Below are positions 9,265 through 41,175 of a DNA stretch of 43,161 bases, piece by piece. The stretch lies in the UHGV virus genome UHGV-0191544. One strand, 5' to 3'. The DNA comes from a virus. Both the position numbers and the translations under genes were made by a program. The notes beneath the pieces were generated by a model. The model saw only the letters and a list, made by a program, of their open reading frames with translations. It was not told the DNA's origin and searched no databases. The first letter of the stretch is position 1, and each line of letters starts with the position of its first letter.

Positions 9265-9564
9265 TCAAATAAGTGGTTTGCTGCCTAATTTAATTTTCTG
9301 GCGACCAACACAAGTCACCCCCATTTCACTGCGTGGCTTGCGGTAGTAAATACGGTTCTGTTTACGCTCGACTTCATCTGCCTTCTTGCAGAGAAGGCTT
9401 CCGAGTGATGCTACTTTGTCTGCTCTGACGCAACCAGAGAGCTTTAGCGCAATTTTTCGCGCCAGTCGCTGCTCTTGCATCGCCTGTTCACGTTGAGCCT
9501 GTCTGCGTGCTCTGCGGCGATTTCTGGCGTTATCGTCAGCCAGATATGTAATGACTACTGTCAT
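9265..9564 (-). CDS. N: N-type transcription antiterminator
   Basis: N-terminal arginine-rich motif NARNRRRARRQAQREQA; first gene after PL/nutL. Confidence 0.7.
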   Translation of the reverse strand: MTVVITYLADDNARNRRRARRQAQREQAMQEQRLARKIALKLSGCVRADKVASLGSLLCKKADEVERKQNRIYYRKPRSEMGVTCVGRQKIKLGSKPLI

Positions 9565-10225: not shown

Positions 10226-10594
10226 TTAGTCAGCGAAGGTTAAGACGAGAATTACCTTAATGATGTCTGCTACAACAGACACGGCCATAGATAAACCAAA
10301 GACGATCCAAGCCACAGTGATGTCTTCACTACCATCGTATATAGTTCCGTAATCACTGGTGTAAGGCGTAAATGTCGCGCCTTGATACAATAGGTATAAG
10401 CTTGATCCATAGAGGATAAATGCAGATATCCCTTGTATTGCTATGATCACCAGAATCATGAAACGAGCTGATCTATGCGCCCAAGCCTGGCTTATTTTTT
10501 CTGATAGAGATTTCGCAATAAAAGCATGCGCTAAGCCGTAAATTGTCGAGATTGCCAACATCCCAAAAAAGCTTGCTATAGCGGTTCCAACCAT
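10226..10594 (-). CDS. Polytopic membrane protein, about 122 aa, co-transcribed with cI (rex/sieB position)
   Basis: Track ORF 10226..10615 overlaps cI stop; likely ATG at 10594 with AAGGGG SD; 3-4 hydrophobic helices. Confidence 0.6.
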   Translation of the reverse strand: MVGTAIASFFGMLAISTIYGLAHAFIAKSLSEKISQAWAHRSARFMILVIIAIQGISAFILYGSSLYLLYQGATFTPYTSDYGTIYDGSEDITVAWIVFGLSMAVSVVADIIKVILVLTFAD

Positions 10595-10611
10595 AATCGC
10601 CCCTTGCGTGA

Positions 10612-11328
10612 TCAAACCAGCCTTAGTTTTGTCTCAATTGCAACGCCTATAATCTTGCAGTTTCCATTGATTGGCACGAGAGGCCATGCAGGATTAAGTC
10701 CCTTGAGGTATTTATTTCCGCCGTCGATTATCAGCTTCTTGAATGTTGCTTCGTTAGAGTCAGAAAGTTTTGCTATGACCAAGCTGCCGTTGATCGCCTC
10801 CCTTCCGGTATCGAAAAGAACGAATGTTCCCTCTGGAATGCTTAACCCAACCGGTGCCGTCATTGAATCACCTTCCACTTTAAGCCAGAACGCATTACCT
10901 TGAATATGCGCGTCAGACTCAAGCCAAACATCTATGTCTTTAATGGTGTATGGTTCGCATGCTTCACACCACGAGCCAGCCTGGATACTGCTTAACACCG
11001 GATACCTCTTTCCTGCTCTGTATTCCCCTGCATACCTTACGTTGGCATCGCTCTTAAGGCTTTCTGCCTGTTCTGCAACCTTGGCAGCAATTGACTGGCT
11101 AAAATCAGCAATTGAGACTTGCAACAGCCGTGCAAAACCAGATGCAACCTCAACGTTTAGCGCGTTTCTGCCATTAAGATAATGCCCTACCGCTCCTTGG
11201 GTGATACCCAGTTCATCAGCGATTGAGTATTGGGTTATTCCCAATTCTTTCTTTTTTGACTCATACAAAGCCTTAAGCCGCTTAGCGTCTTCGAGCTGTT
11301 CTGTCGTCAGTGATTTTTTATTTTCCAT
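10612..11328 (-). CDS. cI: CI-type prophage repressor (HTH plus LexA-like S24 peptidase domain)
   Basis: Closely resembles lambda CI (LTQEQLEDARRLKAIY..., FWLEVEGNSMTAP...) as recalled. Confidence 0.9.
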   Translation of the reverse strand: MENKKSLTTEQLEDAKRLKALYESKKKELGITQYSIADELGITQGAVGHYLNGRNALNVEVASGFARLLQVSIADFSQSIAAKVAEQAESLKSDANVRYAGEYRAGKRYPVLSSIQAGSWCEACEPYTIKDIDVWLESDAHIQGNAFWLKVEGDSMTAPVGLSIPEGTFVLFDTGREAINGSLVIAKLSDSNEATFKKLIIDGGNKYLKGLNPAWPLVPINGNCKIIGVAIETKLRLV

Positions 11329-11428: not shown

Positions 11429-11629
11429 GTGCATATGATTCGAATGACACTTGCCGATTACGCCAAAATCCATGGACAGGCTAAAGCAGCCAGTGACTTT
11501 GGTGTAATCCAGTGCGCTATCAGCAAGGCCATTCTGGCAGGCCGTAACATTATGGTTACGGTAAAGCCTGATGGCAGTGTGATTGGAGAGGAAGTTCGTC
11601 CTTTCCCAAGCAACAAGAAAAACAAATAG
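11429..11629 (+). CDS. cro: Cro repressor
   Basis: Resembles lambda Cro ([38 protein letters not shown]...) as recalled. Confidence 0.85.
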
Positions 11630-11680: not shown

Positions 11681-11737
11681 TACAACGCGCATAAGTTGAT
11701 GCGCATAACTTCTTATTTGTTAAGGAAATACTTACAT

Positions 11738-12016
11738 ATGGAACTTACAAGTACTCGCAAGAAAGCGAATGCAATTACAAGCAACATCCTGAATCGAATT
11801 GCTGTACGTGGTCAGCGAAAGGTTGCTGACGCGTTAGGAATTAATGAATCGCAAATTTCGCGATGGAAAGACAGCTTCATCCCCAAAATGGGAATGCTTC
11901 TTGCTGTTCTTGAATGGGGTGTTGAAGACGAGGAGTTGGCGGAACTGGCTAAGAAAGTAGCCAGAATGCTGACAAAAGAAAAAGCCCCGAAGAACGGCGA
12001 ATTCTTCGAGGCCTGA
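11738..12016 (+). CDS. cII: CII transcriptional activator
   Basis: Matches lambda CII core (SQISRWK...IPKxxMLLAVLEWGV); ATG at 11738 with AAGGAAA SD. Confidence 0.85.
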   Translation: MELTSTRKKANAITSNILNRIAVRGQRKVADALGINESQISRWKDSFIPKMGMLLAVLEWGVEDEELAELAKKVARMLTKEKAPKNGEFFEA

Positions 12017-12050
12017 TGTAGAAAGACTGGATCAATCCACAGGAGTAATT

Positions 12051-12212
12051 ATGACAAAACGTCGTAAGAAATACCAGGAAAAAGAAGAGATTCGACACCC
12101 TGATTCACCTGAGGGATTAGTGGTAGCCGCAGCAAATAACAGGGCGTTCGCAGAGCGCCTTGTTGGTGTTTACAGACTAGCCAAAGCAGGAGTGAAACAT
12201 GGGCGTCGTTAA
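12051..12212 (+). CDS. Small basic protein, 53 aa, between cII and the replication gene
   Basis: ATG 5 nt after AGGAG; overlaps O-like start by 14 nt. Confidence 0.3.
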   Translation: MTKRRKKYQEKEEIRHPDSPEGLVVAAANNRAFAERLVGVYRLAKAGVKHGRR

Positions 12213-13089
12213 GTTAGCTGATTACAGGCATAACCCTGTACAACATCAGGAGGCATCCAGTATGGGGTATGTCTCTATACACCGCCAGTTTATGGACAGC
12301 AGACTCTATAAGGACTCTCAGGCAGTACATCTTTGGCTTCACTTAATCCTCAAGGCTAATCACGAATCTACTGTCGTCAATACGGATATCGGTCCGATAA
12401 CTGTTGATCGCGGTCAGATGATAACTGGACGCCCGTCGCTGGTCAGAGAAACATTCATTCCAGACAACAAAGTTCGGAGCTTATTACGGACTTTTGAGTC
12501 GAAAGGGATGCTTAATATTTGCTCGATGGGGAAGAAATTTAGCCTGTTTACAATCGTTAAATATGACGATTTTCAGGCAAAAAATTGTCCAACGGTTGTC
12601 CAACAGTTGTCCAACGCAAACACCAGTAATGGCGCGGCTCTCAGCGGAGATTGTCCAACGGTTGTCCAACGGTTGTCCATAAACAATAATATAAATAATA
12701 TCTCTAATACTGACGTATTAGAGAGTGCCACAGCAGACAAAAAGTCTGACAAGAAAAAACCTTCCGTCAGCTGTCAGGATGTTGTCGATGCTTACCACGA
12801 AATCCTTCCTGAAGCGCCAAGAATCCGCGCACTGAATGACAAGCGTAAAAACCAGATCCGAACGTTCTGGCGCAAAGCCGGAGTGATAACCCGACAGCTT
12901 GAAGGGCATGGTTTCACGATGCAGGACTGGAGAAATTATTTGAGCTACGTAGGCGAAAATTGCCGATGGATGTTCGAAGAGCGTCCAAACCATCAACGCG
13001 GAACTGTCTGGCACAAAAAGGGATTTGATTTCCTGCTTAACGATAATACCTACCTGAAAGTTCGTGAGGGTGAACACGATGACCGATAA
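12199..13089 (+). CDS. Replication initiator (lambda O / P22 gp18-like), contains origin iterons
   Basis: Position upstream of helicase; iterons embedded in coding sequence; start may be internal Met at 12262. Confidence 0.65.
   Translation: MGVVKLADYRHNPVQHQEASSMGYVSIHRQFMDSRLYKDSQAVHLWLHLILKANHESTVVNTDIGPITVDRGQMITGRPSLVRETFIPDNKVRSLLRTFESKGMLNICSMGKKFSLFTIVKYDDFQAKNCPTVVQQLSNANTSNGAALSGDCPTVVQRLSINNNINNISNTDVLESATADKKSDKKKPSVSCQDVVDAYHEILPEAPRIRALNDKRKNQIRTFWRKAGVITRQLEGHGFTMQDWRNYLSYVGENCRWMFEERPNHQRGTVWHKKGFDFLLNDNTYLKVREGEHDDR
12585..12680. repeat. Origin iterons: six 11-bp TTGTCCAACGG-type repeats in two clusters, followed by AT-rich tract
   Basis: Clusters at about 12585-12617 and 12651-12680; AT-rich 12681-12720. 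Confidence 0.7.
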
Positions 13090-14515
13090 TTTTTATGCGC
13101 CGCCCCATAGCATCGAGGCAGAGCAGGCGGTGATTGGTGGATTGCTTCTGGATGATGACAGCAGTGAGCGCGTCCAGAAAGTTCTGTCGATGCTGAAGCC
13201 TGATTCATTTTACAGCCGACCACACAAAATCCTTTTCGAAGAAATAACCAGAATGCACCGGGAGCAAAAGCCAGTAGATGGCCTGACGCTTTTCGATGAA
13301 CTGGAGCGTAAATCGTTAACGGCGTCTGTTGGCGGTTTTGCTTATATCGCTGAGATCGCAAAGAACACGCCAAGCGCCGCAAACATCGTTGCCTATGCAA
13401 TGCAGGTTCGTGAAACCGCAATGGAACGCTACGCCATCAACCGCATGACTGAAGCGACGGAATTGCTCTATTCCCGCAACGGAATGACTGCAACACAGAA
13501 GTACGAAGCTATTCAGTCGATTTTCACGCAACTGACAGACCATGCAAAAACCGGATCGCGTCGCGGCCTTCGTTCATTTGGTGAGGTCATGGAAGACTGG
13601 GTTAGCGACCTTGAGAAGCGATTTGACCCGTCAGGCGAACAACGAGGAATGAGCACAGGGATCCCATCGCTGGACAGGATGCTGTCACCGAAAGGTCTGG
13701 TGAAAGGCTCTCTGTTTGTCATTGGCGCTCGCCCTAAGATGGGGAAAACGACGCTATACAGCCAGATGGCAATCAATTGCGCAGTGCATGAGAAAAAGCC
13801 CGCTCTGATGTTCAGCCTTGAAATGCCAGGTGATCAGATACTGGAAAAACTGGTAGGGCAGAAGTCAGGTGTTAACCCGAATATTTTTTACCTTCCGGCG
13901 ACAAATGACTCTGATGACGGCTATCAGGGTGATTACGATGGTGACTTCAACAGGGCGATCGAAACAGCCAATCGCTTGAGTGAAATCGACATGCTTTACA
14001 TCGACGACACGCCGGGATTATCTCTGGCTCAAATCGTCAGCGAAAGCCGTCGAATCAAGCGAGAAAAAGGATGTGTTGGCATGATTCTGGTCGATTACCT
14101 GACACTAATGACCGCTGAGAAGGCCGATCGCAACGACCTTGCTTACGGCATGATCACCAAAGGACTGAAGAACCTTGCCAAAGAGCTTGATTGCGTTGTT
14201 GTGCTTCTGACACAGCTTAACCGCGCACTGGAAAGCCGAACCAATAAACGCCCATTACCAAGTGACTCACGAGATACAGGGCAGATTGAACAGGATTGCG
14301 ATTATTGGGTGGGGATCCATCGTGAAGGTGCTTTTGATGACAGTGTTCCACCTGGTGAAACCGAACTAATTCTTCGTCTCAATCGTCATGGCAATACCGG
14401 CACGGTGTATTGCATTCAGGCAAATGGCGCTATTTATGACACAGACCAACAGTCTGCTGAAATGCGCCGCCGTGAACGCGAGGAACCGCAATCCAAGAAG
14501 AAAGGAGGATTCTGA
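13064..14515 (+). CDS. DnaB-family replicative helicase (P22 gene 12-like)
   Basis: Walker A GARPKMGKTTL; DnaB-like N-terminal domain; about 483 aa. Confidence 0.85.
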   Translation: MRVNTMTDNFYAPPHSIEAEQAVIGGLLLDDDSSERVQKVLSMLKPDSFYSRPHKILFEEITRMHREQKPVDGLTLFDELERKSLTASVGGFAYIAEIAKNTPSAANIVAYAMQVRETAMERYAINRMTEATELLYSRNGMTATQKYEAIQSIFTQLTDHAKTGSRRGLRSFGEVMEDWVSDLEKRFDPSGEQRGMSTGIPSLDRMLSPKGLVKGSLFVIGARPKMGKTTLYSQMAINCAVHEKKPALMFSLEMPGDQILEKLVGQKSGVNPNIFYLPATNDSDDGYQGDYDGDFNRAIETANRLSEIDMLYIDDTPGLSLAQIVSESRRIKREKGCVGMILVDYLTLMTAEKADRNDLAYGMITKGLKNLAKELDCVVVLLTQLNRALESRTNKRPLPSDSRDTGQIEQDCDYWVGIHREGAFDDSVPPGETELILRLNRHGNTGTVYCIQANGAIYDTDQQSAEMRRREREEPQSKKKGGF

Positions 14516-14598
14516 TGACCATCTACATCACTGAGCTAATAACAGGCCTGCTGGTAATCGCAGGCCTTTTTATTTGGGGGAGAGGGAAGTGTGGCTGA
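14515..14598 (+). CDS. Small hydrophobic peptide, 27 aa
   Basis: ATG overlaps helicase stop; SD AAAGGAGGA; sequence MTIYITELITGLLVIAGLFIWGRGKCG. Confidence 0.3.
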   Translation: MTIYITELITGLLVIAGLFIWGRGKCG

Positions 14599-14917
14599 CT
14601 GGCAAATTCCAATCATCATTCTTGCCGGAGCTTCGCTGGTTGCTGGATTTATCCTGCTGAAAAAGCATAAAGACCGCGATCAAAAAGTCGAAGTTCTCTA
14701 TGGGTATCCAGCGAACAGCACAACATGGCTGACCATTTACCACTACCGAAAATCAGGCCGCTGGGTATTCGAATGGGATGATCTGTTCGCTGAAAAGCGA
14801 CCAAAGTCATGGGGAGACATCAGCGAATGCATGATGTTTGAAGAAAGAAAATCCGGCGCAACCCGAGAAGAGTTTAACGAAGCGTGGGCGCGATTAAGTG
14901 AGAGAGGGTATTTGTGA
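14591..14917 (+). CDS. Hypothetical protein, 108 aa, N-terminal membrane anchor
   Basis: GTG start after AGAGGGAAG; hydrophobic N-terminus. Confidence 0.45.
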   Translation: MADWQIPIIILAGASLVAGFILLKKHKDRDQKVEVLYGYPANSTTWLTIYHYRKSGRWVFEWDDLFAEKRPKSWGDISECMMFEERKSGATREEFNEAWARLSERGYL

Positions 14918-15114
14918 GCAAGTACGAAAAATTAGATCAAAACATTCTTTCAATGCTGAGTGAAAGACCAACACCTATTTTTGATATCTGGCTTAAATGG
15001 CGGAGCAATGGAATGTATATCGAAACCATCGATCGCCGTATGCAATACCTGAGAAAGAAAGGGCTTGTTGCAAATGTGCGTGGGAAGGGTTGGGTGAAAA
15101 TTAACCTGTCATAA
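14914..15114 (+). CDS. Hypothetical small protein, 66 aa
   Basis: ORF start overlaps upstream stop. Confidence 0.45.
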   Translation: MSKYEKLDQNILSMLSERPTPIFDIWLKWRSNGMYIETIDRRMQYLRKKGLVANVRGKGWVKINLS

Positions 15115-15125
15115 CGGGGATTGAT

Positions 15126-15434
15126 ATGGACGAATCAAGAAAGCAGTTTGAGGAATACGTTGCCAAAAAATTGAGATTACCATTCGAGATGATAACCGAG
15201 GCAAGAAATGGTGATAGGTACTTCGCATTTTCAAGCATGGATATTCGTCACTCCTTAAATGAGTGGTGGACTTTATGGCAGGCATCGCGAGCAGTTATCG
15301 AGATTGAGCTGCAAAAGCCAAAGAAAGGCCCACTTCCCGGTGATTATCACATTGGCTATGACTCAGGTGCAGAATCGCAATACGAAAGCGATGTAGATGC
15401 TATCCGCGCCGCTGGAATCAAAGTGAAGGAGTGA
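15126..15434 (+). CDS. Hypothetical protein, 102 aa
   Basis: ORF in nin-region operon orientation. Confidence 0.45.
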   Translation: MDESRKQFEEYVAKKLRLPFEMITEARNGDRYFAFSSMDIRHSLNEWWTLWQASRAVIEIELQKPKKGPLPGDYHIGYDSGAESQYESDVDAIRAAGIKVKE

Positions 15435-15622
15435 GCATGAGTCGACGAAGTAGCTTTTTGGGGTTTGTAATATTCCTGTCCTGCACTGGTTACATCGTGA
15501 TCTGGTCAATTTCGAACATTGACCGTGGCGGGGAATATCTCATTGTAATGTTCTTTCCTTTGTTTCTTGGGTGGTACGCCGCAAGGTTGCTGGAAGAATG
15601 GGGTTACAGGCATAAAAAATAA
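15431..15622 (+). CDS. Small membrane protein, 63 aa
   Basis: Two hydrophobic segments; start overlaps upstream stop. Confidence 0.4.
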   Translation: MSMSRRSSFLGFVIFLSCTGYIVIWSISNIDRGGEYLIVMFFPLFLGWYAARLLEEWGYRHKK

Positions 15623-15633
15623 AGGAGTGTTCA

Positions 15634-16044
15634 GTGAAGCAAACAATATTCCTCCGAACTAAGCAACAACAGCAAGCCGCAATCAACGCCATCCTCGCAA
15701 CACCACTCGATAAAGACAAGCCAGTCACCATCCGCATTATTGACTACAAGCGCAACCTTGATCAGAACGCAAAATTTCACGCGATGCTGGCGGATATCGC
15801 ACGTCAGGTTCAATGGTGCGGCAAATGGTTAAAACCGGAACAATGGAAGGTTTTGTTGATCAGCGGTCATGCAGTGGCAACAAAACAGGAAGCTGATGTT
15901 TTGCCCGGCCTTGAAGGCGAATACGTCAACATTCGCGAAAGCAGCGCGCAGATGAGCGTGAAGCGTATGGCAAGTCTGATTGAGTACACGACAGCATGGG
16001 CTATTGGTCAGGGTGTCAGATTTACCGACAGGAGGTACGAATGA
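15634..16044 (+). CDS. ninB: NinB (Orf-family recombination mediator)
   Basis: Similar to lambda NinB as recalled (LDQNxKxxAxLxDxxRQVxWxGxWL). Confidence 0.75.
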
Positions 16045-16217
16045 GGCGACAGCGACGAAGTATCACCGACATCATCTGCGAAAACTGCAAATACCTTCCA
16101 ACGAAACGCTCCAGAAATAAACGCAAGCCAATCCCAAAAGAATCTGACGTAAAAACCTTCAATTACACGGCTCACCTGTGGGATATCCGGTGGCTAAGAC
16201 ATCGTGCGAGGAAATGA
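16041..16217 (+). CDS. ninE: NinE-like protein
   Basis: Internal Met of track ORF 15996..16217 gives [22 protein letters not shown]..., resembling lambda NinE as recalled. Confidence 0.55.
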
Positions 16218-16219
16218 CA

Positions 16220-16579
16220 ATGGATTATTCACAGTTAAGTGATTTTGAAATTAACGTGGCGGTATTCGAAGCCATTCATAACGGATCACCGGATTACAAA
16301 GAAGGTGAGAATGGCGATATGGTGTTTATCTCATTTGAGGGAGACATTGTAAACGGAGACGCAGTTGAAGTAGAAGTTGAGCGCGGATCATTTAACCCAT
16401 GCGTAAACCCAGCAGACGCATGGCCGATTATTGAAAAATACAGGATTAGCATTATCAATCTCGATGAAGACGAGTGGGGTGCACGCGGTGTGGCCTACTG
16501 TAAATCTAAGCGAGCTATACATGAAAATCCCCTCCGCGCCGCCATGATTGTCTTTCTCATGATGCAGAGAATCCAATAA
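16220..16579 (+). CDS. Hypothetical nin-region protein, about 119 aa
   Basis: Internal ATG with GAGGAAA SD within track ORF 16178..16579. Confidence 0.45.
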   Translation: MDYSQLSDFEINVAVFEAIHNGSPDYKEGENGDMVFISFEGDIVNGDAVEVEVERGSFNPCVNPADAWPIIEKYRISIINLDEDEWGARGVAYCKSKRAIHENPLRAAMIVFLMMQRIQ

Positions 16580-16755
16580 TGCTTAGCCCATCCCAATCCA
16601 TTCAATACCAGAAAGAAAGCGTCGAGCGGGCTTTAACGTGCGCTAACTGCGGTCAGAAGCTGCATGTGCTGGAAGTTCACGTGTGCTCCGATTGCTGCGC
16701 AGAACTGATGAGCGATCCGAATAGCTCAATGTACGAGGAAGAAGACGATGAATGA
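16579..16755 (+). CDS. ninF: NinF-like zinc-finger protein, 58 aa
   Basis: Hand-translated MLSPSQSIQYQKESVERALTCANCGQKLHVLEVHVC..., matching lambda NinF as recalled. Confidence 0.55.
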   Translation: MLSPSQSIQYQKESVERALTCANCGQKLHVLEVHVCSDCCAELMSDPNSSMYEEEDDE

Positions 16756-17470
16756 GTTAATAAATGGCAATGCCATCAAAATGACAAGCATTGAAATCGC
16801 TGAGTTGGTGAGTAAGCGTCATGACAATGTGAAACGTACCATCGAAACGCTGGCTAAAAATGGTGTTATCCGGCTTCCTCAGATTGAGGTTTCCGAAAGA
16901 ATCAATAACTTAGGGTTCAATGTTCAGTACGAGCATTACGTCTTCGAAGGCGAACAAGGTAAGCGAGACAGTATTGTCGTTGTTGCCCAGTTGTCGCCGG
17001 AATTCACCGCTCGTCTTGTTGACCGTTGGCGAGAGCTTGAAGAAACTGCGGTTAATATCCCCAAAACGCTACCAGAAGCGTTGCGCCTTGCTGCTGATCT
17101 TGCTGAGCAGAAAATGCAACTGGAAAACCAGCTCGCAATTGCCGCACCTAAAGTTGAGTTTGCCGATCGCGTTGGCGAGGCCAGCGGAATTTTGATTGGA
17201 AACTTTGCAAAGGTTGTCGGTATTGGCCCAAACAAACTGTTTGCATGGATGCGCGATCACAAAATCCTTATTGCTTCAGGTTCCCGGCGCAATGTGCCAA
17301 TGCAGGAATATATGGATCGCGGCTATTTCACAGTGAAAGAAACAGCGGTCAACACAAATCACGGAATACAGATATCGTTCACCACAAAAATCACCGGGCG
17401 TGGTCAACAGTGGCTGACCAGAAAGCTGCTCGATAACGGAATGCTGAAAGTAACAGGGGAGGCTGCTTAA
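16748..17470 (+). CDS. Phage antirepressor-like protein (N-terminal Rha/ORF6N-like, C-terminal KilA-C-like)
   Basis: Domain-like sequence pattern, size 240 aa; family call from memory only. Confidence 0.5.
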   Translation: MNELINGNAIKMTSIEIAELVSKRHDNVKRTIETLAKNGVIRLPQIEVSERINNLGFNVQYEHYVFEGEQGKRDSIVVVAQLSPEFTARLVDRWRELEETAVNIPKTLPEALRLAADLAEQKMQLENQLAIAAPKVEFADRVGEASGILIGNFAKVVGIGPNKLFAWMRDHKILIASGSRRNVPMQEYMDRGYFTVKETAVNTNHGIQISFTTKITGRGQQWLTRKLLDNGMLKVTGEAA

Positions 17471-18119: not shown

Positions 18120-18304
18120 ACTCCACAATTCAAACGATACCAGAGCTTCTTATCCAGACACGAGGAAATCAGACCGAAGTGGCGAGGATGCTTTCCTGTG
18201 CAAGAGGAACAGTGCTCAAGTACAACCGAGACAGCAAAGGCGAGCGTCACGTAATAGTTAACGGCGTCCTGATGGTCAAACAGGGCAAGAGGGGAAGACG
18301 ATGA
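18116..18304 (+). CDS. ninH: NinH-like small HTH protein
   Basis: GNQTEVARMLSCARGTV matches lambda NinH GNQTEVARRLKCSRGTV. Confidence 0.6.
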   Translation: MNSTIQTIPELLIQTRGNQTEVARMLSCARGTVLKYNRDSKGERHVIVNGVLMVKQGKRGRR

Positions 18305-18789
18305 GCATAAGAGAACTAAACCTCACCAAAGAGCAGCACGATTGGCTGAATGGATGGCTTGAACTGTGGGGCGCATGGGTTTATTCAGGTCGTCTGGAAA
18401 AGCGCATGAGCAGCGTAATAGCGAAGTTCATGGAGAGCGTAGAGCCGGGAAGAGTTATGACAAGGCCAATGTGTAATGATGATGATGGAATGTTGATTTC
18501 TCAGGTCGTCGATTCCGTCATGTACATTGACAAGAAAGCCTTTGGCATCCTCCTCAGTTACTACGCCCACGGCTCTTCCAAGCACGCCATTGCATCTTAC
18601 TATCATCGCGTCGCAAGACCTCGCAAGATGTTATGCCGGGGCGGCGGGCGCATTCAAAAACCATCGCTCGCAACCTGTCGCCGGGAAGTTGACGAAATCC
18701 TCAATTCCTCGTTGTTTATGATTTACCCTGTTCTGGATGGTGCGTTTAAAAACCGGAAACGTGTAGAGAAAATTAAACATGTAGCATAG
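18301..18789 (+). CDS. Q: Late-gene antiterminator Q (non-lambda Q family)
   Basis: Position between nin region and lysis cassette; 162 aa; family assignment by position and size. Confidence 0.55.
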   Translation: MSIRELNLTKEQHDWLNGWLELWGAWVYSGRLEKRMSSVIAKFMESVEPGRVMTRPMCNDDDGMLISQVVDSVMYIDKKAFGILLSYYAHGSSKHAIASYYHRVARPRKMLCRGGGRIQKPSLATCRREVDEILNSSLFMIYPVLDGAFKNRKRVEKIKHVA

Positions 18790-19316
18790 AACGTGTTGAC
18801 ATCATTGAGCAAATGAGCAACACTATTCGCATAAGCTGCCGTTAGTGACTCTTAAGTTGCAACGGTGGCTTTTTTTGTTTGCACAACAGGTAAGAGCATT
18901 GAACCCGCAGACCTCGCGGAATTGGTGAAAGGTGCCGCGCAGTGCTCTTATCGTTGTGGTGAATGCACAGGCTGATGTGTAAGGGCAAGAATCTTTCGCT
19001 GGATTCGGTATGGCCACGTAGCCAGCTGTAGGCAGTTGCAGCAAACCGGAGATCAGCACCGGTCGCCACAATCCAAACTGAGCCGTAGCCACTGGATGTC
19101 CTGAATTCATCAGTGATAGTTATGCTGCGGCCTTCTACACATGATCTTCGTGAAAGCGGGCGGCATGAGGTTGCGCTAACAACCTCCTGCCGTTTTGCCC
19201 GTGCATATCGGTCACGAACAAATCTGATTACTAAACACAGTAGCCTGGATTTGTTCTATCAGTAATCGACCTTATTCCTAATTAAATAGAGCAAATCCCC
19301 TTATTGGGGGTAAGAC

Positions 19317-19640
19317 ATGAAGATGCCAGAAAAACATGACCTGTTAGCCGCCATTCTCGCGGCAAAGGAACAAGGCATCGGGGCAATCCTTGCGTTTGCA
19401 ATGGCGTACCTTCGCGGCAGATATAATGGCGGTGCGTTTACAAAAACAGTAATCGACGCAACGATGTGCGCCATTATCGCCTGGTTCATTCGTGACCTTC
19501 TCGACTTCGCCGGACTAAGTAGCAATCTCGCTTATATAACGAGCGTGTTCATCGGCTACATCGGTACTGACTCGATTGGTTCGCTTATCAAACGCTTCGC
19601 TGCTAAAAAAGCCGGAGTAGAAGATGGTGGAAATCAATAA
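19317..19640 (+). CDS. S: Holin, lambda S type, with dual start MKM
   Basis: Near-identical to lambda S as recalled. Confidence 0.95.
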
Positions 19641-20100
19641 TCAACGTAAGGCGTTCCTCGATATGCTGGCGTGGTCAGAGGGAACTGATAACGGACGTCA
19701 GAAAACCAGAAATCATGGTTATGACGTCATTGTAGGCGGAGAGCTATTCACTGATTACTCCGATCACCCTCGCAAACTTGTCACGCTAAACCCAAAACTC
19801 AAATCAACAGCCGCCGGACGTTACCAGCTTCTTTCCCGTTGGTGGGATGCCTATCGCAAGCAGCTCGGACTGAAAGACTTCTCTCCGAAAAGCCAGGACG
19901 CTGTGGCACTGCAACAGATTAAAGAGCGTGGCGCTTTACCGATGATTGATCGCGGTGATATCCGTCAGGCAATCGACCGTTGCAGTAATATCTGGGCTTC
20001 ATTGCCGGGCGCTGGTTATGGTCAGTTCGAGCATAAGGCTGACAGTCTGATTTCAAAATTCAAAGAAGCAGGCGGAACGGTCAGAGAGATTGAGGCATGA
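19624..20100 (+). CDS. R: Endolysin, lambda R type (lytic transglycosylase)
   Basis: Near-identical to lambda R as recalled. Confidence 0.95.
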
Positions 20101-20534
20101 GCAGAGTCACCGCGATTATCTCCGCTCTGGTTATCTGCATCATCGTCTGCCTGTTATGGGCTGTTAATCATTACCGTGATAACGCCATCGCCTACAAAGA
20201 GCAGCGCGATAAAGCCACATCCACAATCGCTGACATGCAGAAGCGTCAACGTGATGTAGCAGAACTCGACGCCAGATACACAAAGGAGCTTGCTGATGCT
20301 AATGCGACTATCGAAAGTCTCCGTGCTGATGTTTCTGCTGGTCGTAAGCGCCTGCAAGTCGCCGCCACCTGTGCAAAGTCAACGACCGGAGCCAGCAGCA
20401 TGGGCGATGGAGAAAGCCCAAGACTTACAGCAGATGCTGAACTCAATTATTACCGTCTCCGAAGTGGAATCGACAGGATAACCGCGCAGGTTAACTACCT
20501 GCAGGAATACATCAGGACGCAATGCCTTCGATGA
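20097..20534 (+). CDS. Rz: Spanin inner-membrane subunit Rz
   Basis: N-terminal TM plus coiled coil; N-terminal half matches lambda Rz. Confidence 0.85.
20290..20481 (+). CDS. Rz1: Spanin outer-membrane lipoprotein Rz1, embedded in Rz in the +1 frame
   Basis: Lipobox LLVVSAC followed by proline-rich segment; fully nested in Rz. Confidence 0.7.
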
Positions 20535-20709
20535 TAGCGATAATTTTACTCATCATCCTTCACATCTGGCTCTGTAGACAGGGTGATGATCACTTCTGGA
20601 GTGAATCCAGATTAAACATCTCATTGCTGATGCTTGATATTGAGCATCTGGCGCGCGGTAAGGGGCTGCGTTGAGATAAGAGCCAGTCATTACAAACACC
20701 AGGATTTAG

Positions 20710-21395: not shown

Positions 21396-21678
21396 CCATT
21401 CCAAAGCCCATCTACGGGTGGGCTTGATAATGAAACCGGAATTTATTCTGGGCAACCAGTTACGGCAGCACCACGAAACAACCCAAGCCAGTAAGTGGGA
21501 AAATAACACTGGCAGCCACTGAAAGATGAACCTCCAGCCTTATGGCAAAAAAGATTCTTTGTGGTGGCGGACTGATGGAAAGACATCGGATAGAATAAAA
21601 CAGTGGCTAGGGTAGCTCCCGAAAAGCGGACTCGTCACCGCCTGCCACTGAATCTATGGCGAACAACTAGACGAGGTT

Positions 21679-26636: not shown

Positions 26637-27548
26637 ATGGACCAAACCACCGACATTCAGGCTTCTGAAGAATTAACCCTGCCCGGCAATCATGCAGCGG
26701 CATCTGCTGATGGCTTAGTTGTCGATAATGCCAACGACAACGCAGGTCAGGAAGAAGGCTTCGAGATTGTCCTGAAAGACGATGAGAAACCAAAACAAGA
26801 CCCGGCAACTAATGCTGAATTTGCCCGTCGCCGCATCGAACGCAAACGCCAGCGTGAGCTTGAGCAGCAGATGGAAGCGGTTAAGCGTGGAGAGTTGCCG
26901 GAGCACCTGCGGGTGAACCCTGAGTTACCAAAACAACCAGACCCTAACGATTATCTTTCCGAAGATGCACTGGCTAAGTACGACTATGACCAGAGCCGCG
27001 CACTGGCTGCCTTCCAGCAGGCAAACAGTGAATGGCAGATCAAGGCTATGGACGCACGAAGCCAGGCTGTCGCCGAGCAGGGTCGCAAAACTCAGGAGTT
27101 CACCCAGCAATCAGCGCAATACGTCGAGGCAGCCCGTAAGCACTACGACGCAGCGGAAAAGCTCAATATCCCTGACTATCAGGAGAAAGAGGATGCATTC
27201 ATGCAACTGGTGCCGCCAGCAGTCGGTGCCGACATCATGCGCCTCTTCCCGGAGAAATCCGCTGCTCTCATGTATCACCTTGGTGCTAATCCTGAGAAAA
27301 CACGCCAGTTGCTGGCGATGGACGGGCAATCCGCGCTGATTGAACTCACTCGACTGTCAGAACGTTTAACTCTCAAGCCTCGAGCCAAGCCTGTTTCAGA
27401 AGCCCCGTTACCTGATGAACCCATTCAGGGGCATGCTGTTGCTGCAAATATCTCTGCGATTGAAAAGCAGATGGAGGCGGCAGCAAACAAAGGGGATGTA
27501 GAGACGTACCGCAAGCTCAAGGCGCAACTGAATAAAGGAATTCGATAA
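26637..27548 (+). CDS. Scaffolding protein (P22 gp8)
   Basis: 303 aa, same length as P22 gp8; position between portal and coat. Confidence 0.85.
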
Positions 27549-28843
27549 TGGCATTAAATGAAGGTCAACTGGTCACGTATGCTCTGGATGAAATCATCGA
27601 AACCGTCCAGAACCTGACGCCAATGGCGTCAAAAGTGACAAAATACACCCCTCCGGCAGAATCCATGCAGCGTTCAAGCAACACCGTGTGGATGCCTGTT
27701 GAGCAGGAAGCGCCAACCCAGACTGGCTGGGATTTAACTGGCAACGCAACCGGGATTCTGGAACTCTCCGTGAAATGCAACATGGGCGATCCGGATAACG
27801 ATTTCTTCGAGCTTCGTGCAGATGACCTGCGTGATGAGCGTTCTTACCGTCGCCGCATCCAGGCATCCGCCAAAAAACTGGCGAATAACATTGAGTCAGC
27901 AATTGCCAAACAGGCAACCGAAATGGGCTCACTTGTTGTTCACGATACCCGCGCAATTGGTCCATCTACTGGCCTGTCTGGCTGGGATTTTGTGTCTGAT
28001 GCAGAGCGCCTGATGTTCTCCCGTGAGCTAAACCGCGATATGGGCATCAGTTACTTCCTGAACCCTGACGATTACCGCAAAGCAGGCCGCAACCTGGTAG
28101 ATGGTGACATCTTTGGGCGCGTTCCTGAAGACGCGTATCGCAACGGTACTATTCAGCGTCAGATTGCTGGCTTTGATGAAATTCTTCGCTCACCGAAACT
28201 TCCGGCAGTTACCAAGTCAACCGCTACTGGTGTAACTGTTTCTGGTGCGCAGAAGTTTAAGCCGCAGGCATACACCCTTGATACCGATGGTAACAAAGAG
28301 AACGTCGACAACCGTGTTGCAACGGTGACCGTATCCTCCACTACCGGATTTAAGCGCGGCGACAAAATCAGCTTCACTGGTGTGAAATTCCTGTCTCAGA
28401 TGGCGAAGAACGTGCTAACTGATGATGCGACTTTCTCAATCACCCGTGTGATCGATGGTACTCACATCGAAATCACGCCGAAACCGATTGCACTGGATGA
28501 CGCGTCACTGACAAAAGAAGAGAAGGCTTACGCTAACGTAAACACCTCTCTTGCTGATACCACTCCGGTAAACGTTCTGAACGTGGCAACAACCACCGCT
28601 AACGTGTTCTGGGCTGATGACTCAATCCGCCTGCTGTCTCAGCCGATCCCGGTAACCCATGAACTGTTTGCTGGTATGAAAACTTCTTCCTTCAGCATTC
28701 CAGGCATTGGTGTTAACGGCATCTTCGCAACGCAGGGTGATATCAACACTCTGTCTGGTAAGTGCCGTATTGCTGTGTGGTATTCAGCATGTGCTGTACG
28801 ACCAGAGGCAATTGGTGTTGGTCTGCCTAACCAGACTGCGTGA
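27548..28843 (+). CDS. Major capsid (coat) protein (P22 gp5)
   Basis: 431 aa; order and size. Confidence 0.9.
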
Positions 28844-28851
28844 TAACCAGA

Positions 28852-28875
28852 GGGAGCTTCGGCTCCCTTTTTTAT
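28852..28875 (+). terminator. Intrinsic terminator immediately after the coat gene
   Basis: GGGAGC-TTCG-GCTCCC stem-loop followed by TTTTTT; approx coordinates. Confidence 0.7.
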
Positions 28876-28887
28876 CTGGAGACAAGC

Positions 28888-29136
28888 ATGACACACATGA
28901 TCTTTCGTCATGGCGACATGAAGAAATGGAAAGGCGTTGGATACGACTTTGAAATCGTGAAAGCCGAAGAGCTTCAGGAATATCTGGATGCTGGCTGGTT
29001 TGCACATCCTGATGACCTTCTGAAGGATGTTGCAGAGCCAGAGCCAGAGCCAGAGCCAGAGCCAGAAGAAAAGCAGCGTAAAAAGCCTGGTCGAAAACCT
29101 AAGGCGGCATCAGATGAACCTGACAACGAAGGGTGA
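28888..29136 (+). CDS. Small protein, 82 aa, with (EP)5 repeat and basic tail; moron-like insertion between coat and gp4
   Basis: ATG 7 nt after GGAG, right after the coat terminator; overlaps gp4 start by about 23 nt. Confidence 0.45.
29035..29064 (+). repeat. Hexanucleotide tandem repeat (GAGCCA)x5
   Basis: Five perfect tandem copies; encodes [10 protein letters not shown] in the 28888 frame. Confidence 0.8.
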
Positions 29137-29614
29137 TTTAGTTCTTGCGGCATTACGTAAGCTCGGTGTGGCATCAAATGCCACGTTAACCGATGTCGAA
29201 CCGCAGTCTATGGAAGACGGCGTCAACGACCTTGAAATGATGATGGCTGAATGGCTTGGCGGTGATGTGTCACCAGGTATCAACGTTGGCTACATTTTCG
29301 CTGATGCAGATGTCGCTCCAGATCCGGGAGATGAGCACGGTTTATCAAATAACGCTATCAATGCCGTCATTTTCAACCTTGCCTGCCGCATTGCTCCGGA
29401 TTATGCGCTGGAAGCGTCAGCAAAACTTATAACCACTGCCAGATACGGGAAAGAGCGACTCGTCAAACTGCCTGCAATGGACAGAGCAAAAGCCGCTAAA
29501 TGTAAGTCCGGTTATCCAAACCGTATGCCTGTTGGTAGCGGTAACCAGTTGGCGAAGTGGAACGGTTGGAATTACTTCCACCGAAAGGAACCTTGCGATA
29601 ACGGGAGCGAATAA
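29114..29614 (+). CDS. Head completion / tail adaptor protein (P22 gp4)
   Basis: Internal Met of track ORF 29027..29614; 166 aa; [16 protein letters not shown] matches gp4 as recalled. Confidence 0.8.
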
Positions 29615-31032
29615 TGCCGATTCAGCAACTTCCGCTCATGAAAGGTGTCGGCAAAGACTTCCGAAATGCCGACTATATCGACTATCTGCCAGTGAATATG
29701 CTGGCTACACCCAAAGAAATCCTGAACAGCAGCGGATATCTTCGCTCATTCCCGGGCATTGCCAAACGTTCTGATGTGAACGGAGTATCGCGAGGCGTCG
29801 AGTACAACATGGCGCAGAATGCTGTTTATCGCGTGTGTGGCGGCAAGTTGTATAAGGGTGAAAGCGAAGTCGGTGACGTCGCCGGAAGTGGTCGTGTATC
29901 AATGGCGCATGGTCGGACATCACAGGCGGTAGGCGTTAATGGTCAACTGGTCGAATACCGCTATGATGGCACGGTTAAAACCGTCTCAAACTGGCCTACA
30001 GATAGCGGATTCACTCAGTATGAGTTAGGCTCAGTCCGCGACATTACACGCTTACGTGGGCGTTATGCGTGGTCAAAAGACGGCACTGATTCATGGTTCA
30101 TCACTGACCTTGAAGACGAATCGCATCCTGACCGTTACAGTGCACAATATCGTGCCGAGTCTCAGCCTGATGGCATCATCGGCATAGGAACATGGCGAGA
30201 CTTCATCGTCTGCTTTGGTTCATCGACGATTGAATATTTCTCCCTGACAGGTGCAACCACCGTTGGTGCCGCTTTGTATGTCGCACAGCCATCACTGATG
30301 GTGCAGAAAGGCATTGCCGGGACTTACTGCAAAACGCCATTCGCTGATTCTTATGCGTTCATCAGCAATCCGGCAACTGGTGCGCCGTCTGTGTATATCA
30401 TCGGCTCCGGTCAGGTTTCACCAATCGCCAGCGCGAGCATTGAGAAAATCCTCCGCTCCTACACTGCTGATGAACTGGCTGATGGTGTGATGGAATCGCT
30501 GAGATTTGATGCTCATGAGTTGCTGATTATCCACCTTCCGCGCCATGTTCTCGTGTACGACGCATCTTCAAGCGCCAATGGTCCGCAATGGTGTGTACTG
30601 AAAACAGGCCTGTATGACGATGTGTACCGCGCTATCGACTTCATTTACGAAGGCAATCAGATAACGTGCGGCGATAAGCTTGAATCGATGACAGGGAAAT
30701 TGCAGTTCGATATCAGCAGCCAGTACGACAAGCAACAGGAACACCTGCTGTTTACTCCGTTGTTCAAAGCGGATAACGCCAGAGTGTTCGATCTTGAGGT
30801 TGAATCGTCAACTGGCGTTGCGCAGTACGCCGACCGCCTGTTCCTCTCTGCAACCACTGACGGCATAAATTACGGACGTGAGCAGATGATTGAACAGAAT
30901 GAACCGTTCGTTTACGACAAACGTGTTTTGTGGAAGCGTGTCGGGCGCATCAGGAAAAATGTCGGCTTCAAATTGCGAGTTATCACGAAGTCACCTGTCA
31001 CTCTGTCAGGCTGCCAGATAAGGATTGAGTAA
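29614..31032 (+). CDS. Tail hub protein (P22 gp10)
   Basis: 472 aa, same as P22 gp10; position. Confidence 0.85.
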
Positions 31033-31985
31033 TGGCTGATTCGAATCTCAATGTGCCGGTAATCATTCAGGCTACACGGCTCGACACATCAGTCCTTCCA
31101 CGCAATATCTTCTCGCAGTCGTATCTGCTTTACGTTATCGCACAGGGCACTGATGTTGGTAACGTGGCTAACAAAGCCAACGAGGCCGGACAGGGCGCTT
31201 ATGATGCACAGGTCAGGAACGATGAGCAGGATGTCACCCTTGCAGACCATGAATCCAGAATTGAAGCTGCTGAAGCAACTCTCACCAATCATGAACATAG
31301 AATTGCAGCAGCGGAAAGCACTCTTGCAGATCATGAAACAAGGATTACGGCTGCTGAAACAGAGCTGGCTGATCACGAGACGCGAATTGCTGCCAATGAA
31401 TCTGATTTAGCAAACCATGATGCGCGCATAACTCAGAATACAACCGATATCGACGCACTTGATACCAGGCTCACAGCGGCAGAGGGAAGTATTTCGACGC
31501 TACAAAGCACAGTTGGTGATCACTCAACAAGAATATCTGCGCTTGAGTATGCCATCACGCGCAAGAAATCAGAGGTTGTTTACTCAGGAGTATCTGTAAC
31601 CATCCCGACAGCGCCGACCAGCCTTGTTAGCCTACTAAAAACGCTCACGCCGTCATCCGGCACGTTAGCACCATTCTTCGACACCGTTAACAACAAGATG
31701 GTTGTGTTCAACGAGAACAAAACCCTGTTCTTCAAGCTGTCGATTGTCGGGACGTGGCCCAGCGGAACCGCCAACAGATCAATGCAACTAACCTTTTCCG
31801 GCTCTGTTCCTGACACACTTGTGAGCAGTCGTAATGCGGCGACAACAACCGATAACATCTTGTTAGCTACGTTCTTCAGCGTGGATAAAGACGGATTTCT
31901 TGCCACAAATGGCAGTACGTTAACCATCCAGTCAAATGGTGCGGCGTTTACTGCCACAACCATCAAGATAATCGCGGAGCAGTGA
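31032..31985 (+). CDS. Tail needle (P22 gp26-like) with extended C-terminal domain
   Basis: N-terminus matches gp26 ([14 protein letters not shown]...); heptad repeats; 317 aa versus 233 aa in P22. Confidence 0.8.
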
Positions 31986-32440
31986 TGATTCAGTTCAAAC
32001 CAACGCGAAACATCGACCTGATCGAAGCAGTCGGAAATCACCCTGACATTATTGCCGGAAGCAACAACGGTGATGGATACGACTACAAGCCTGAATGCCG
32101 TTACTTTGAGGTGAACGTGCACGGTCAGTTTGGCGGCATTGTTTACTATCAGGAGATTCAGCCGCTGACATTCGATTGCCACGCCATGTACCTGCCAGAG
32201 GTTCGTGGATTCAGCAAGGAAATCGGGCTGGCGTTCTGGCGATACATTCTGACTAACACCACCGTTCAGTGCGTCACATCGTTCGCTGCGCGCAAATTCC
32301 GCCACGGGCAGATGTACTGCGCAATGATTGGCCTTAAGCGTGTCGGAACCATCAAGAAATACTTTAAAGGCGTGGATGACGTGACTTTTTACAGCGCCAC
32401 ACGCGAAGAACTAATCGACTTCCTGAATCACGGGAGATAG
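31982..32440 (+). CDS. P22 gp14-like protein
   Basis: Position between tail needle and ejection proteins; 152 aa. Confidence 0.65.
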
Positions 32441-32442
32441 CC

Positions 32443-33138: not shown

Positions 33139-33147
33139 GGGGTAATC

Positions 33148-40864: not shown

Positions 40865-40909
40865 GGGTAAAAATCCGGTGGGTAAAATTATTTTATCCAC
40901 TTTTTACCC
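40865..40909. promoter_or_regulatory. GGGTAAAA motif cluster (two direct, one inverted) at the integrase start; candidate arm sites
   Basis: Same 8-mer as at 868..887; approx coordinates. Confidence 0.35.
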
Positions 40910-41024
40910 GTCACGGAGTGCGGCTGTCAACGATCTGACGCGAACCATTACGAACTGTGAATCTGCGGAAGGCTTGATATTCAGGGAATTTTGCGGACTG
41001 GTACGGATGGGAGCGAACTGATAA

Positions 41025-41039
41025 ATGGTGTCCCCTGCA
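41025..41039. repeat. att core, right copy, forming the 3' end of the tRNA
   Basis: Exact 15-bp match to 794..808. Confidence 0.65.
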
Positions 41040-41099
41040 GGAATCGAACCTGCAATTAGCCCTTAGGAGGGGCTCGTTATATCCATTTAACTAAGAGGA
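41025..41099 (-). tRNA. argW: tRNA-Arg (anticodon CCU)
   Basis: Reverse complement reads GTCCTCTTAGTTAAATGGATATAACGAGCCCCTCCTAAGGGCTAATTGCAGGTTCGATTCCTGCAGGGGACACCA. Confidence 0.9.
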
Positions 41100-41175
41100 C
41101 AATGCGGCATGAGTATACCCGCTAATGGACTGCGGGGTAAGTACGCTGCCGCTCGATTGCTTAAACCCTCGCCAT

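Follow-up and report, generated by a model that had tools for sequence, protein, structure and literature searches.

NinA, the tR2 terminator and four shuffled small genes between the helicase gene and ninB of an Sf6-like prophage

The DNA analysed here (the window) is a 43,161-nucleotide viral sequence, UHGV virus genome UHGV-0191544, and is a complete Sf6-like (P22-family) prophage. Five small open reading frames, A to E, lie on the plus strand between the gene for a DnaB-type helicase and ninB (Table 1), and the ORF list and the sequence agree with the initial annotation on the presence and position of all five. The same annotation described them as all tightly overlapping. Tight packing is indeed found, as are overlaps of 8 nt between A and B and of 4 nt (GTGA) between B and C, but C and D are separated by 11 nt and the stop codon of D lies 2 nt from the ATG of E; a further 11 nt separate E from ninB. 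At the left-hand end, the helicase gene, with a probable start at ATG 13079, finishes in a TGA (14513–14515) that has one base in common with the ATG of A. Each of the five frames is provided with a Shine–Dalgarno (SD)-like sequence. For the three products described as membrane-associated, Kyte–Doolittle analysis in 19-residue windows confirmed hydrophobic spans in A (residues 2–20), B (5–23) and E (7–25 and 34–52), with none in C or D. Base composition is unremarkable, and an Rfam search of the whole window gave no match within it.

Table 1. Features of the segment from the helicase gene to ninB (window coordinates)
Feature	Position	Strand	Evidence or remarks
DnaB-type replicative helicase, Sf6 gene 44 homologue	13064..14515	+	Pfam DnaB_C E=3e-60, DnaB E=4e-31
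AAGGAGG Shine–Dalgarno sequence of NinA	14502..14508	+	Sequence; 6 nt 5' of the ATG, within the 3' end of the helicase gene
ORF A, the NinA reading frame, 27 aa, ATG start; Sf6 gene 45	14515..14598	+	phrog_5907 E=2e-19; Sf6 annotation
tR2 intrinsic terminator, inside ORF A	14544..14575	+	8-bp stem (6 G–C pairs), 8-nt loop, then TTTTTATTT
GGGGGAGAGGGAAG ribosome-binding site (G-rich SD)	14576..14589	+	Alignments; serves ninB in lambda and P22, ORF B here
ORF B, 108 aa, GTG start; Sf6 gene 46	14591..14917	+	phrog_5903 E=1e-75
ORF C, 66 aa, GTG start; Sf6 gene 47	14914..15114	+	phrog_7185 E=3e-34
ORF D, 102 aa, ATG start; Sf6 gene 48	15126..15434	+	phrog_343 E=5e-27
ORF E, 61 aa from ATG, two hydrophobic helices	15437..15622	+	SD, ATG, diverged homologue
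NinB (Orf-family recombination mediator), right-hand end of the slot	15634..16044	+	Pfam NinB E=6e-55

The initial description of the cluster as five small unknown genes does not stand, as A is the long-annotated NinA reading frame and B, C and D are genes 46–48 of Sf6, annotated since 2004. NinA frames enclosing tR2 are annotated in the records of Sf6, HK620, P22, Nil3 and Lahn3, the terminator itself being so named in Sf6 and HK620, and the sequence is also the mosaic boundary sequence bsq6. As in Sf6, HK620 and P22, the frame follows the last replication gene and precedes the first nin gene, and its 27 codons, which begin MTIYITEL and span the hairpin, fall within the length typical of NinA (approximately 24–31 codons). 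The stem of tR2 (14544–14567) begins 28 nt past the helicase stop codon, and the terminator is the sole terminator-like site in 14000–16500. Its hairpin and U-tract are identical to those of lambda and do not vary across the alignments made with lambda, Sf6, P22 and HK620. Since codons 11–21 of NinA are the hairpin and U-tract themselves, these account for the hydrophobic middle of the peptide. The presence of tR2 inside ORF A had been overlooked in the initial annotation.

The resemblance to the NinA–tR2 segments of lambda, P22 and HK620 extends to the ATG/stop overlap, the peptide MTIYITELITGLLVIAGLFIWGRGK and the G-rich SD of the next gene, and the same 76 nt of ORF A make up the spacer between ren and ninB in lambda. 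Because B rather than ninB comes next here, the final two codons (CG) and the stop are not those of these phages, and the gene upstream encodes a DnaB-type helicase in place of Ren. In lambda (ren) and P22 (gene 12), SD-like motifs are found at the same distance within these unrelated upstream genes. Overall, 421 phage records contain the ORF A sequence at ≥90% identity, and of 120 IMG/VR phage contigs that carry the same tR2 terminator, 115 retain the NinA ATG and frame. In lambda, tR2 terminates transcription from pR unless N is present; identity of sequence, together with a gene for an N-like antiterminator, suggests that the terminator would likewise stop pR transcription here when N is lacking. 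In published reporter work tR2 was placed 30 nt after the NinA AUG, mutation of the NinA ribosome-binding site or AUG restored expression of an upstream reporter, indicating that the start site is active, and the reduction in termination caused by translation of NinA was only about 10% (Li et al., 2016; PMC4824070).

Downstream of the terminator, ORFs B, C and D are established as genes by their PHROG matches (Table 1) and by diverged homologues. Sf6 genes 46, 47 and 48 have the same order and the same overlaps (98.9% nucleotide identity over the aligned stretch), and their products match B, C and D over the full length with 99%, 97% and 97% amino acid identity. More widely, positions 11721–15438 of the window, from cII through gene 48, are 98.7% identical to Sf6 27522–31239. 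Homology ends precisely where D does; beyond that point Sf6 has gene 49 (HK022 gp60-like) and another ninB allele, whereas the window has ORF E instead. Sf6 deletion mutants that lack genes 46–56 have been published as viable and growing well. Genes 46–48 are absent from isolates 3-7 (deletion 30436–34441) and 7-3, both of which form viable plaques, and complete sequencing of isolate 3-7 revealed no other mutation. According to the same paper, a predicted nin-region terminator was kept in all of the deletion mutants, and phage without genes 46–48 were faster to lyse. Loss of the close Sf6 orthologues of B, C and D thus leaves plaque formation intact, a result that applies to Sf6 in laboratory culture and to genes with an Sf6 counterpart, which E does not have.

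Comparison of the same slot across the 120 tR2 contigs upheld the claim of a variable cargo slot where the nin region begins. In 55 of them ninB follows directly after the terminator, while the occupied slots hold 0.25–1.3 kb of DNA with differing gene combinations, including B alone, B-C-D, D alone, h68-D and h68-D-E; the combination B-C-D-E was found only in the window. B, C, D and E are therefore four small genes, each separate from the others, that occupy a recombination slot left empty in roughly half of related phages. An adjacent accessory slot, between P and tR2, is filled in lambda by ren, a non-essential accessory gene beside the same terminator in the same operon and a precedent here for cargo related to exclusion. 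Ren, however, has no sequence similarity to the genes considered here and is encoded upstream of tR2, whereas B to E lie downstream and would additionally need readthrough of the terminator.

Profile searches with A to E returned nothing significant from Pfam, NCBIfam or PADLOC, the PHROG matches are to families of "unknown function" only, and neither sequence nor fold allowed a function to be assigned to B, D or E. Literature searches gave nothing on "phiTE_015" (the family name given to D, see below), nor any functional work on these genes. The product of B consists of an N-terminal membrane helix (residues 5–27 in an AlphaFold model), the segment KKHKDRDQK and a small alpha/beta domain that is conserved and carries the motifs YGYP, TWLTIYH and FEWDDLF. 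This core remains conserved at identities as low as 41%, and the membrane helix is absent in some members, which places the conserved function in the soluble domain. The positive-inside rule predicts an N-out/C-in topology, and B may therefore be an alpha/beta domain that sits in the cytoplasm, anchored to the inner membrane. Sequence and profile searches of the PDB gave no match to B. A scan of genome contigs for its relatives found only two loci, both in Pantoea, with small membrane ORFs near an integrase gene.

ORF C encodes a basic protein (net +7) that is probably a small winged helix-turn-helix protein. When its family profile was compared with the PDB, the best match, below significance but nearly full length, was the winged-helix protein 1sfx (E=0.021). 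Weak matches to Rrf2, IscR and Crp helix-turn-helix domains recur over the same residues (Pfam Rrf2 and HTH_Crp_2, E=0.07–0.3). Profile positions 11–71 align to 1sfx (AF2008), including the helix-wing motif RLxxLxKxG...GKGW. Compared with small winged-helix regulators of the AF2008, Rrf2/IscR and MarR-like kinds, C has just 66 residues and is without a dimerisation or sensor domain. A role as a small DNA-binding protein is putative. Homologues of C occur in virulent siphophages and on large conjugative plasmids. The product of D is acidic, mostly helical and mosaic within the gene, and its swapped internal segments may point to a changing binding partner. It is a probable member of family PF26207 (PGAP name "phiTE_015 family"); a precomputed PF26207 match is attached to every listed homologue, including P0063 (96% identity), and a relative with 70% identity carries the phiTE_015 name. 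The Pfam and NCBIfam copies that were searched do not contain the PF26207 model, and there neither D nor a PGAP-named homologue gave a match. Against the PDB, sequence and profile searches with D produced chance matches only.

ORF E was listed as a 63-aa frame from an in-frame GTG at 15431 (15431–15622), but translation more likely starts at the ATG at 15437, because all homologues begin there. Its termini are both basic, and it would be a two-helix inner-membrane protein with both ends in the cytoplasm (N-in/C-in). By sequence, E is a narrow orphan family, with just 4 clusters among 5.8 billion proteins. An exhaustive profile search of 1.8 billion representatives yielded two chance-level matches and no relatives, PHROG, Pfam, NCBIfam and PADLOC gave no match, and the sole hit was sub-threshold (Acyl_transf_3, E=0.01). 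Class II holins, pinholins and T4 Imm are small two-helix phage proteins of the inner membrane, and E is similar to them in size, in its two hydrophobic helices, short loop and charged C-terminus, although it has no sequence match to them and is encoded in an early operon and not by an endolysin gene. A holin assignment for E was rejected on its position in the early-right operon away from endolysin and on the lack of a holin-family match in Pfam, PHROGs and NCBIfam. The prophage has a lysis cassette of its own at approximately 19076–20696, with a lambda-S-type holin, endolysin and Rz.

Taken together, the segment from tR2 to ninB is likely to be a stretch of the early-right (pR) operon of an Sf6-like prophage in which the NinA/tR2 element is followed by four shuffled, dispensable delayed-early lytic genes. 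A scan of 14000–16500 on either strand found no promoter-like site, against 3.8 expected from shuffled sequences, the scan being based on a crude sigma-70 consensus that could miss weak promoters or those of other sigma factors. The prophage encodes an N-like antiterminator (9265–9564; phrog_271, E=4e-35), and a Q-type antiterminator closes the operon. The lack of a promoter-like site and the presence of the N-like gene make lytic, N-dependent expression most likely, rather than expression in the prophage state. Transcription would start only at pR and stop at tR2 unless the N-like antiterminator had modified RNA polymerase, so that B to E would be delayed-early genes, silent in the repressed prophage. 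Ribosomes would then pass from helicase to NinA and on through B, C, D and E to NinB, by way of stop/start overlaps (TGATG, the 8 nt between A and B, GTGA) or short SD-bearing spacers. During lytic growth, each product might act on its own to modulate the host or competitors, without being essential. A moron with its own promoter and terminator was rejected, given that the crude scan found no promoter-like site and that the sole terminator lies upstream of the cargo.

The finding is an ordinary one, because A is the known NinA frame around tR2 and the other four are dispensable genes, shuffled independently of each other, in a slot already known to vary. Both the NinA/tR2 element and shuffled cargo of this kind are already known; B to E are typical lambdoid cargo, with the counterparts of B to D non-essential in Sf6, and the locus has little importance beyond annotation. 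There, a 27-aa hydrophobic "peptide gene" at this position is to be read as NinA/tR2, the landmark where N-independent transcription stops. The structural models of B and D are confident or moderately confident and have no known fold relatives, and both proteins would be cheap to screen for new host-takeover or anti-defence functions.

It could be argued that A, E or both are not genes at all, A being an accidental frame over a terminator and E an unannotated stretch separating D from ninB. In 5 of the 120 contigs the terminator is retained but the 5' part lacks a NinA ATG, and the C-terminal tail of NinA varies with the downstream sequence (WGRGKS, WGRVNRG, WGRGKCG) and is hit by frameshifts. 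Against this, and besides the active start site noted above, three upstream genes that are unrelated to one another have SD-like motifs at the appropriate distance, and of the five substitutions that separate P22 from the window ahead of the hairpin, four are synonymous. In the L008-type phage, a diverged start of 12 codons retains 7 of 11 residues although there are 17 differences over 33 nt (random expectation P=2e-5); exact-pattern scans of viral and metagenome contigs did not find the completion of this NinA-like frame. For E, the doubt comes from the failure to find relatives, from two inspected E. coli genomes in which PGAP left 99% identical DNA uncalled, and from polymorphism among close copies that looks neutral (14 amino-acid-changing sites and 4 that are not, spread evenly across codon positions). 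On the other hand, E has an SD and an ATG, 61 of 62 IMG/VR copies are intact, and the diverged copy in L008 has 61 codons without indels at 75% nucleotide and 72% amino acid identity, with a dN/dS of 0.19 that supports a real gene. A non-coding origin is thus unlikely for these frames, and E is probably a genuine 61-aa membrane protein gene.

A different possibility, to which we also give little weight, is either that NinA is a selected membrane micropeptide or that E and/or B are lytic-phase effectors at the inner membrane, acting in exclusion of superinfecting phage or in counter-defence. Were the former true, the terminator would be deliberately embedded in a translated frame coupled to the upstream replication gene, where ribosome traffic could tune tR2 and pass ribosomes to the first nin gene. 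Were the latter true, the swapped internal segments of D would reflect an arms race. In T4, superinfecting phage are excluded by Imm and Sp, two small membrane proteins made early, a precedent for exclusion in the lytic phase, and by analogy with Imm these genes may act in the same way.

The proposal that the membrane proteins A, B and E are toxins or superinfection-exclusion cargo, which protect the lysogen or kill infected cells, draws on the membrane-length hydrophobic spans of all three products, on the hypervariability of the slot and on the neighbouring lambda gene ren, recorded as a "Ren-like exclusion protein". This idea has been somewhat weakened and is decidedly improbable. Among A to E, PADLOC gave only a chance-level CARF-HTH match for C (E=0.041), and Pfam, PHROG and NCBIfam gave no match to holin, toxin or Sie families, so that none of the five has a defence, toxin or holin assignment. 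Expression in the prophage state is unlikely for genes downstream of tR2 with no promoter-like site, the hydrophobic core of A is translated terminator, and B has homologues without the membrane helix. The viability and faster lysis of Sf6 without genes 46–48 and the independent assortment of B to E count against it as well. Moreover, a better-placed candidate for exclusion in the lysogen is the 129-aa multi-span protein encoded just 3' of cI (10226–10615).

Finally, the shared strand, tight packing and overlaps of the five frames, and the mixture of membrane proteins with a putative DNA binder, might suggest one functional unit (a membrane complex with its regulator, or a toxin–antitoxin-like module), but this is very improbable, and a single A–E system was rejected on independent assortment: B alone, B-C-D, h68-D-E and D alone all occur, ten loci have E only 285–286 nt after tR2 with no room for D, the diverged E lies directly 3' of a helicase gene, homologues of C occur in virulent phages and on plasmids that have neither B nor D, and those of B lie near an integrase gene in Pantoea.

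The initial annotation counted five unknown genes between the helicase and NinB at the start of the nin region; the five ORFs stand but their novelty does not, because ORF A is, by sequence, the known NinA frame around the lambda-type intrinsic terminator tR2 and ORFs B, C and D are annotated Sf6 genes. The earlier description of the locus is otherwise accurate, since ORF coordinates, spacing, Shine-Dalgarno (SD) sequences and hydropathy all match it. Neighbouring ORFs overlap or sit at most 11 nt apart, each is preceded by an SD-like sequence, and hydropathy agrees that A is hydrophobic (one membrane-length span), that B has an N-terminal anchor (one span) and that E has two helices, with no such span in the soluble C and D.

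Features of the prophage and of the nin-region cluster (window positions)
Feature	Position	Strand	Remarks
N-like antiterminator	9265-9564		arginine-rich motif; phrog_271, E=4e-35
129-aa protein, several hydrophobic spans	10226-10615	-	phrog_6534, unknown function
Lambda-Cro-like gene	11429-11629
DnaB-type helicase	13064-14515	+	Pfam DnaB_C E=3e-60
NinA SD AAGGAGG	14502-14508		inside helicase gene 3' end
ORF A	14515-14598	+	27 aa
SD GGGGGAGAGGGAAG	14576-14589		G-rich; before ORF B here
ORF B	14591-14917	+	108 aa
ORF C	14914-15114	+	66 aa
ORF D	15126-15434	+	102 aa
ORF E	15431-15622	+	63 aa
NinB	15634-16044	+	Pfam NinB E=6e-55
Q-type antiterminator	18301-18789
tRNA gene	41029-41100	-	abuts integrase end of prophage

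Judged by homology, the window holds a complete Sf6-like (Lederbergvirus) prophage. The Sf6 int/attP region is matched at both prophage ends (~794-1191 and 39716-41040), beside a tRNA gene, which sets the prophage ends at ~794 and 41040 and puts the whole prophage plus host flanks in the window. From cII to gene 48, positions 11721-15438 are 98.7% identical to Sf6 27522-31239, and this homology ends exactly where ORF D ends. The operon also carries the usual nin genes NinX, NinF, YbcO, RusA and NinH.

No terminator-like site occurs in 14000-16500 other than the tR2 stem (14544-14567; 8 bp with 6 G-C pairs, then TTTTTATTT), which occupies the central part of ORF A. The 76 nt from the ORF A ATG to the ORF B start are the lambda ren-ninB spacer sequence, and alignments show the hairpin and U-tract to be invariant across lambda, Sf6, P22 and HK620. 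The Sf6 record labels the stretch gene 45 ("similar to phage 21 NinA"), terminator tR2 and boundary sequence bsq6; ninA and/or tR2 are also annotated in the HK620, P22, Nil3 and Lahn3 records, and the element is found at 90% identity or more in 421 phage records. The G-rich SD at its end is the ribosome-binding site of ninB in lambda and P22, but precedes ORF B in the window. The arrangement has been studied directly: tR2 lies 30 nt past the NinA AUG, mutation of the RBS or AUG restored expression of an upstream reporter, so the start site is active, and termination fell by just ~10% when NinA was translated (Li et al., 2016; PMC4824070).

NinA is probably translated, and several observations favour its being more than a frame over the terminator. 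An SD-like motif stands 6-10 nt before its ATG in three unrelated upstream genes (the Sf6-type helicase, lambda ren and P22 gene 12), four of the five substitutions between P22 and the window before the hairpin are synonymous, and ATG and frame are retained in 115 of 120 IMG/VR copies. In L008 (2552-2587) and at the same place in L009, two contigs with a diverged E-like gene, an SD downstream of that gene is followed by the start of a NinA-like ORF (MTAYLTECIVGL); in L008, 17 of 33 nt differ in this 12-codon start, yet 7 of 11 NinA residues are unchanged (random substitution, P=2e-5, for an example picked post hoc at a contig end). Pattern scans of viral and metagenome contigs found no longer copy. 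Against that reading stand the five of 120 contigs that retain the hairpin with an unrelated 5' part and no NinA start, a C-terminal tail that differs according to the downstream module, and one-base indels in the G-run that fuse NinA to ORF B in some genomes. The hydrophobic core GLLVIAGLFI is itself the hairpin stem and U-tract translated. On balance, what is primarily conserved here is the terminator. In the database, some twelve proteins (P0007-P0018, 133-137 aa, e.g., MTIYITELITGLLVIAGLFILGGGGVADWQ) are in-frame NinA-ORF B fusions arising from such indels in the shared-SD G-run (14567-14593); their clusters have just 1-2 members each, and either sequencing error or genuine slippage, the latter yielding a two-helix protein, could account for them.

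By protein identity, ORFs B, C and D are Sf6 genes 46, 47 and 48 (99%, 97% and 97%, respectively). ORF B has 58 homologue clusters and a conserved core (motifs YGYP, TWLTIYH, FEWDDLF and RPKSWG) with 18 invariant columns in 31 sequences down to 41% identity. Its N-terminal helix is variable in sequence and absent from some members, and the core without the helix also occurs in virulent phages, for example Goslar and seszw/IME207. The AlphaFold model (pLDDT 85.7) places four strands and a C-terminal helix after a helix at 5-27, and a basic stretch past the N-terminal helix suggests, by the positive-inside rule, an N-out/C-in topology with a cytoplasmic domain. A Pantoea genome contig (L010, 2359-3243) carries a homologue of 69% identity, preceded by two small hydrophobic ORFs of 55 and 61 aa and with an integrase ~1 kb downstream, so the B domain also travels with other small membrane ORFs beyond the nin region. 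ORF C is basic and probably a winged-helix protein: its family profile aligns nearly full length with the winged-helix protein 1sfx (E=0.021), and the residues concerned also give repeated weak matches to Rrf2, IscR and Crp-HTH. Virulent siphophages carry diverged homologues, beside genes for ParB-like and other DNA-binding proteins, as do large conjugative plasmids. The ORF D family has 244 homologues, of which the 120 listed all have a precomputed PF26207 match; PGAP names a relative at 70% identity "phiTE_015 family protein". Family members are intragenic mosaics (window 15126-15434, P0063-P0182): between the conserved blocks MDESRKQFEE (start), WQASRAAIEIE (core) and IRAAGIKVKE (end), two segments each exist in at least five unrelated, interchangeable versions, which suggests recombination at those blocks.

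The proposal that this is a variable cargo slot is borne out by 120 IMG/VR contigs with the exact tR2 hairpin. In 55 of them ninB follows about 30 nt downstream of tR2, the empty state of lambda and P22; the others hold 0.25-1.3 kb of differing gene combinations drawn from a 68-aa gene (phrog_1165), B, C, D, E, Sf6 gp49 and others. B and D each occur alone, and B-C-D is found both with the 68-aa gene and without it. Most E-containing loci have E after D; in ten, E lies only 285-286 nt past tR2, leaving no room for D. The set B-C-D-E was seen only in the window, and the five of 5,426 complete E. coli genomes covering at least 80% of the query each have an extra gene. Such variety indicates that the slot genes are independent modules rather than one system. 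A Rha / KilAC (ANT) antirepressor-like gene in the mid nin region, between NinF and YbcO (16748-17470, plus strand), is a further cargo insertion in the operon of ORFs B-E.

In Sf6, another gene (gp49) occupies the position of ORF E. ORF E has no match in PHROG, Pfam, NCBIfam or PADLOC, forms only four clusters among 5.8 billion proteins, and gained no further relatives from an exhaustive profile search. It is a hypothetical protein in two phage records and is not annotated by PGAP in two E. coli genomes inspected, where the DNA is 99% identical. Its start is more likely the ATG at 15437, which gives 61 aa and is the start of every homologue, than 15431. The diverged copy in L008, directly after a DnaB helicase gene, likewise has 61 codons without indels (75% nucleotide and 72% amino acid identity, dN/dS 0.19) and supports ORF E as a real gene. 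The frame is intact in 61 of 62 near-identical IMG/VR copies, with the reservation that polymorphism among the 62 looks neutral (14 non-synonymous sites against four synonymous), a pattern common at very low divergence.

For both strands of 14000-16500, no promoter-like sites were found (3.8 expected from shuffles), nor was a terminator after the cargo genes. Given the upstream tR2 and the N-like gene, ORFs B-E would most simply be expressed from pR during the lytic cycle, in an N-dependent manner. Sf6 mutants deleted for 30436-34441 (genes 46-56) or 30641-34635 (genes 46-54) are viable and plaque-forming (Dover et al., 2016; PMC5630979), so ORFs B, C and D are non-essential in this closest relative. 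The deletion isolates assayed lysed earlier with smaller bursts, and all deletion mutants kept a predicted nin-region terminator (PMC5630979). No link of any of ORFs A-E to toxicity or exclusion was found, and such a role for B and E during lytic growth has a low probability. A more plausible candidate for a lysogen-expressed membrane exclusion factor is the better-placed 129-aa protein, whose position corresponds to that of lysogen-expressed exclusion genes in lambda, such as rexAB. Its gene is directly downstream of the cI-type repressor gene (10612-11328), with a 4-nt overlap. Elsewhere in the window, between the lysis and terminase genes, an Rfam int-alpA sRNA match lies at 21600-21662 on the plus strand (45.3 bits against a gathering score of 35.8).
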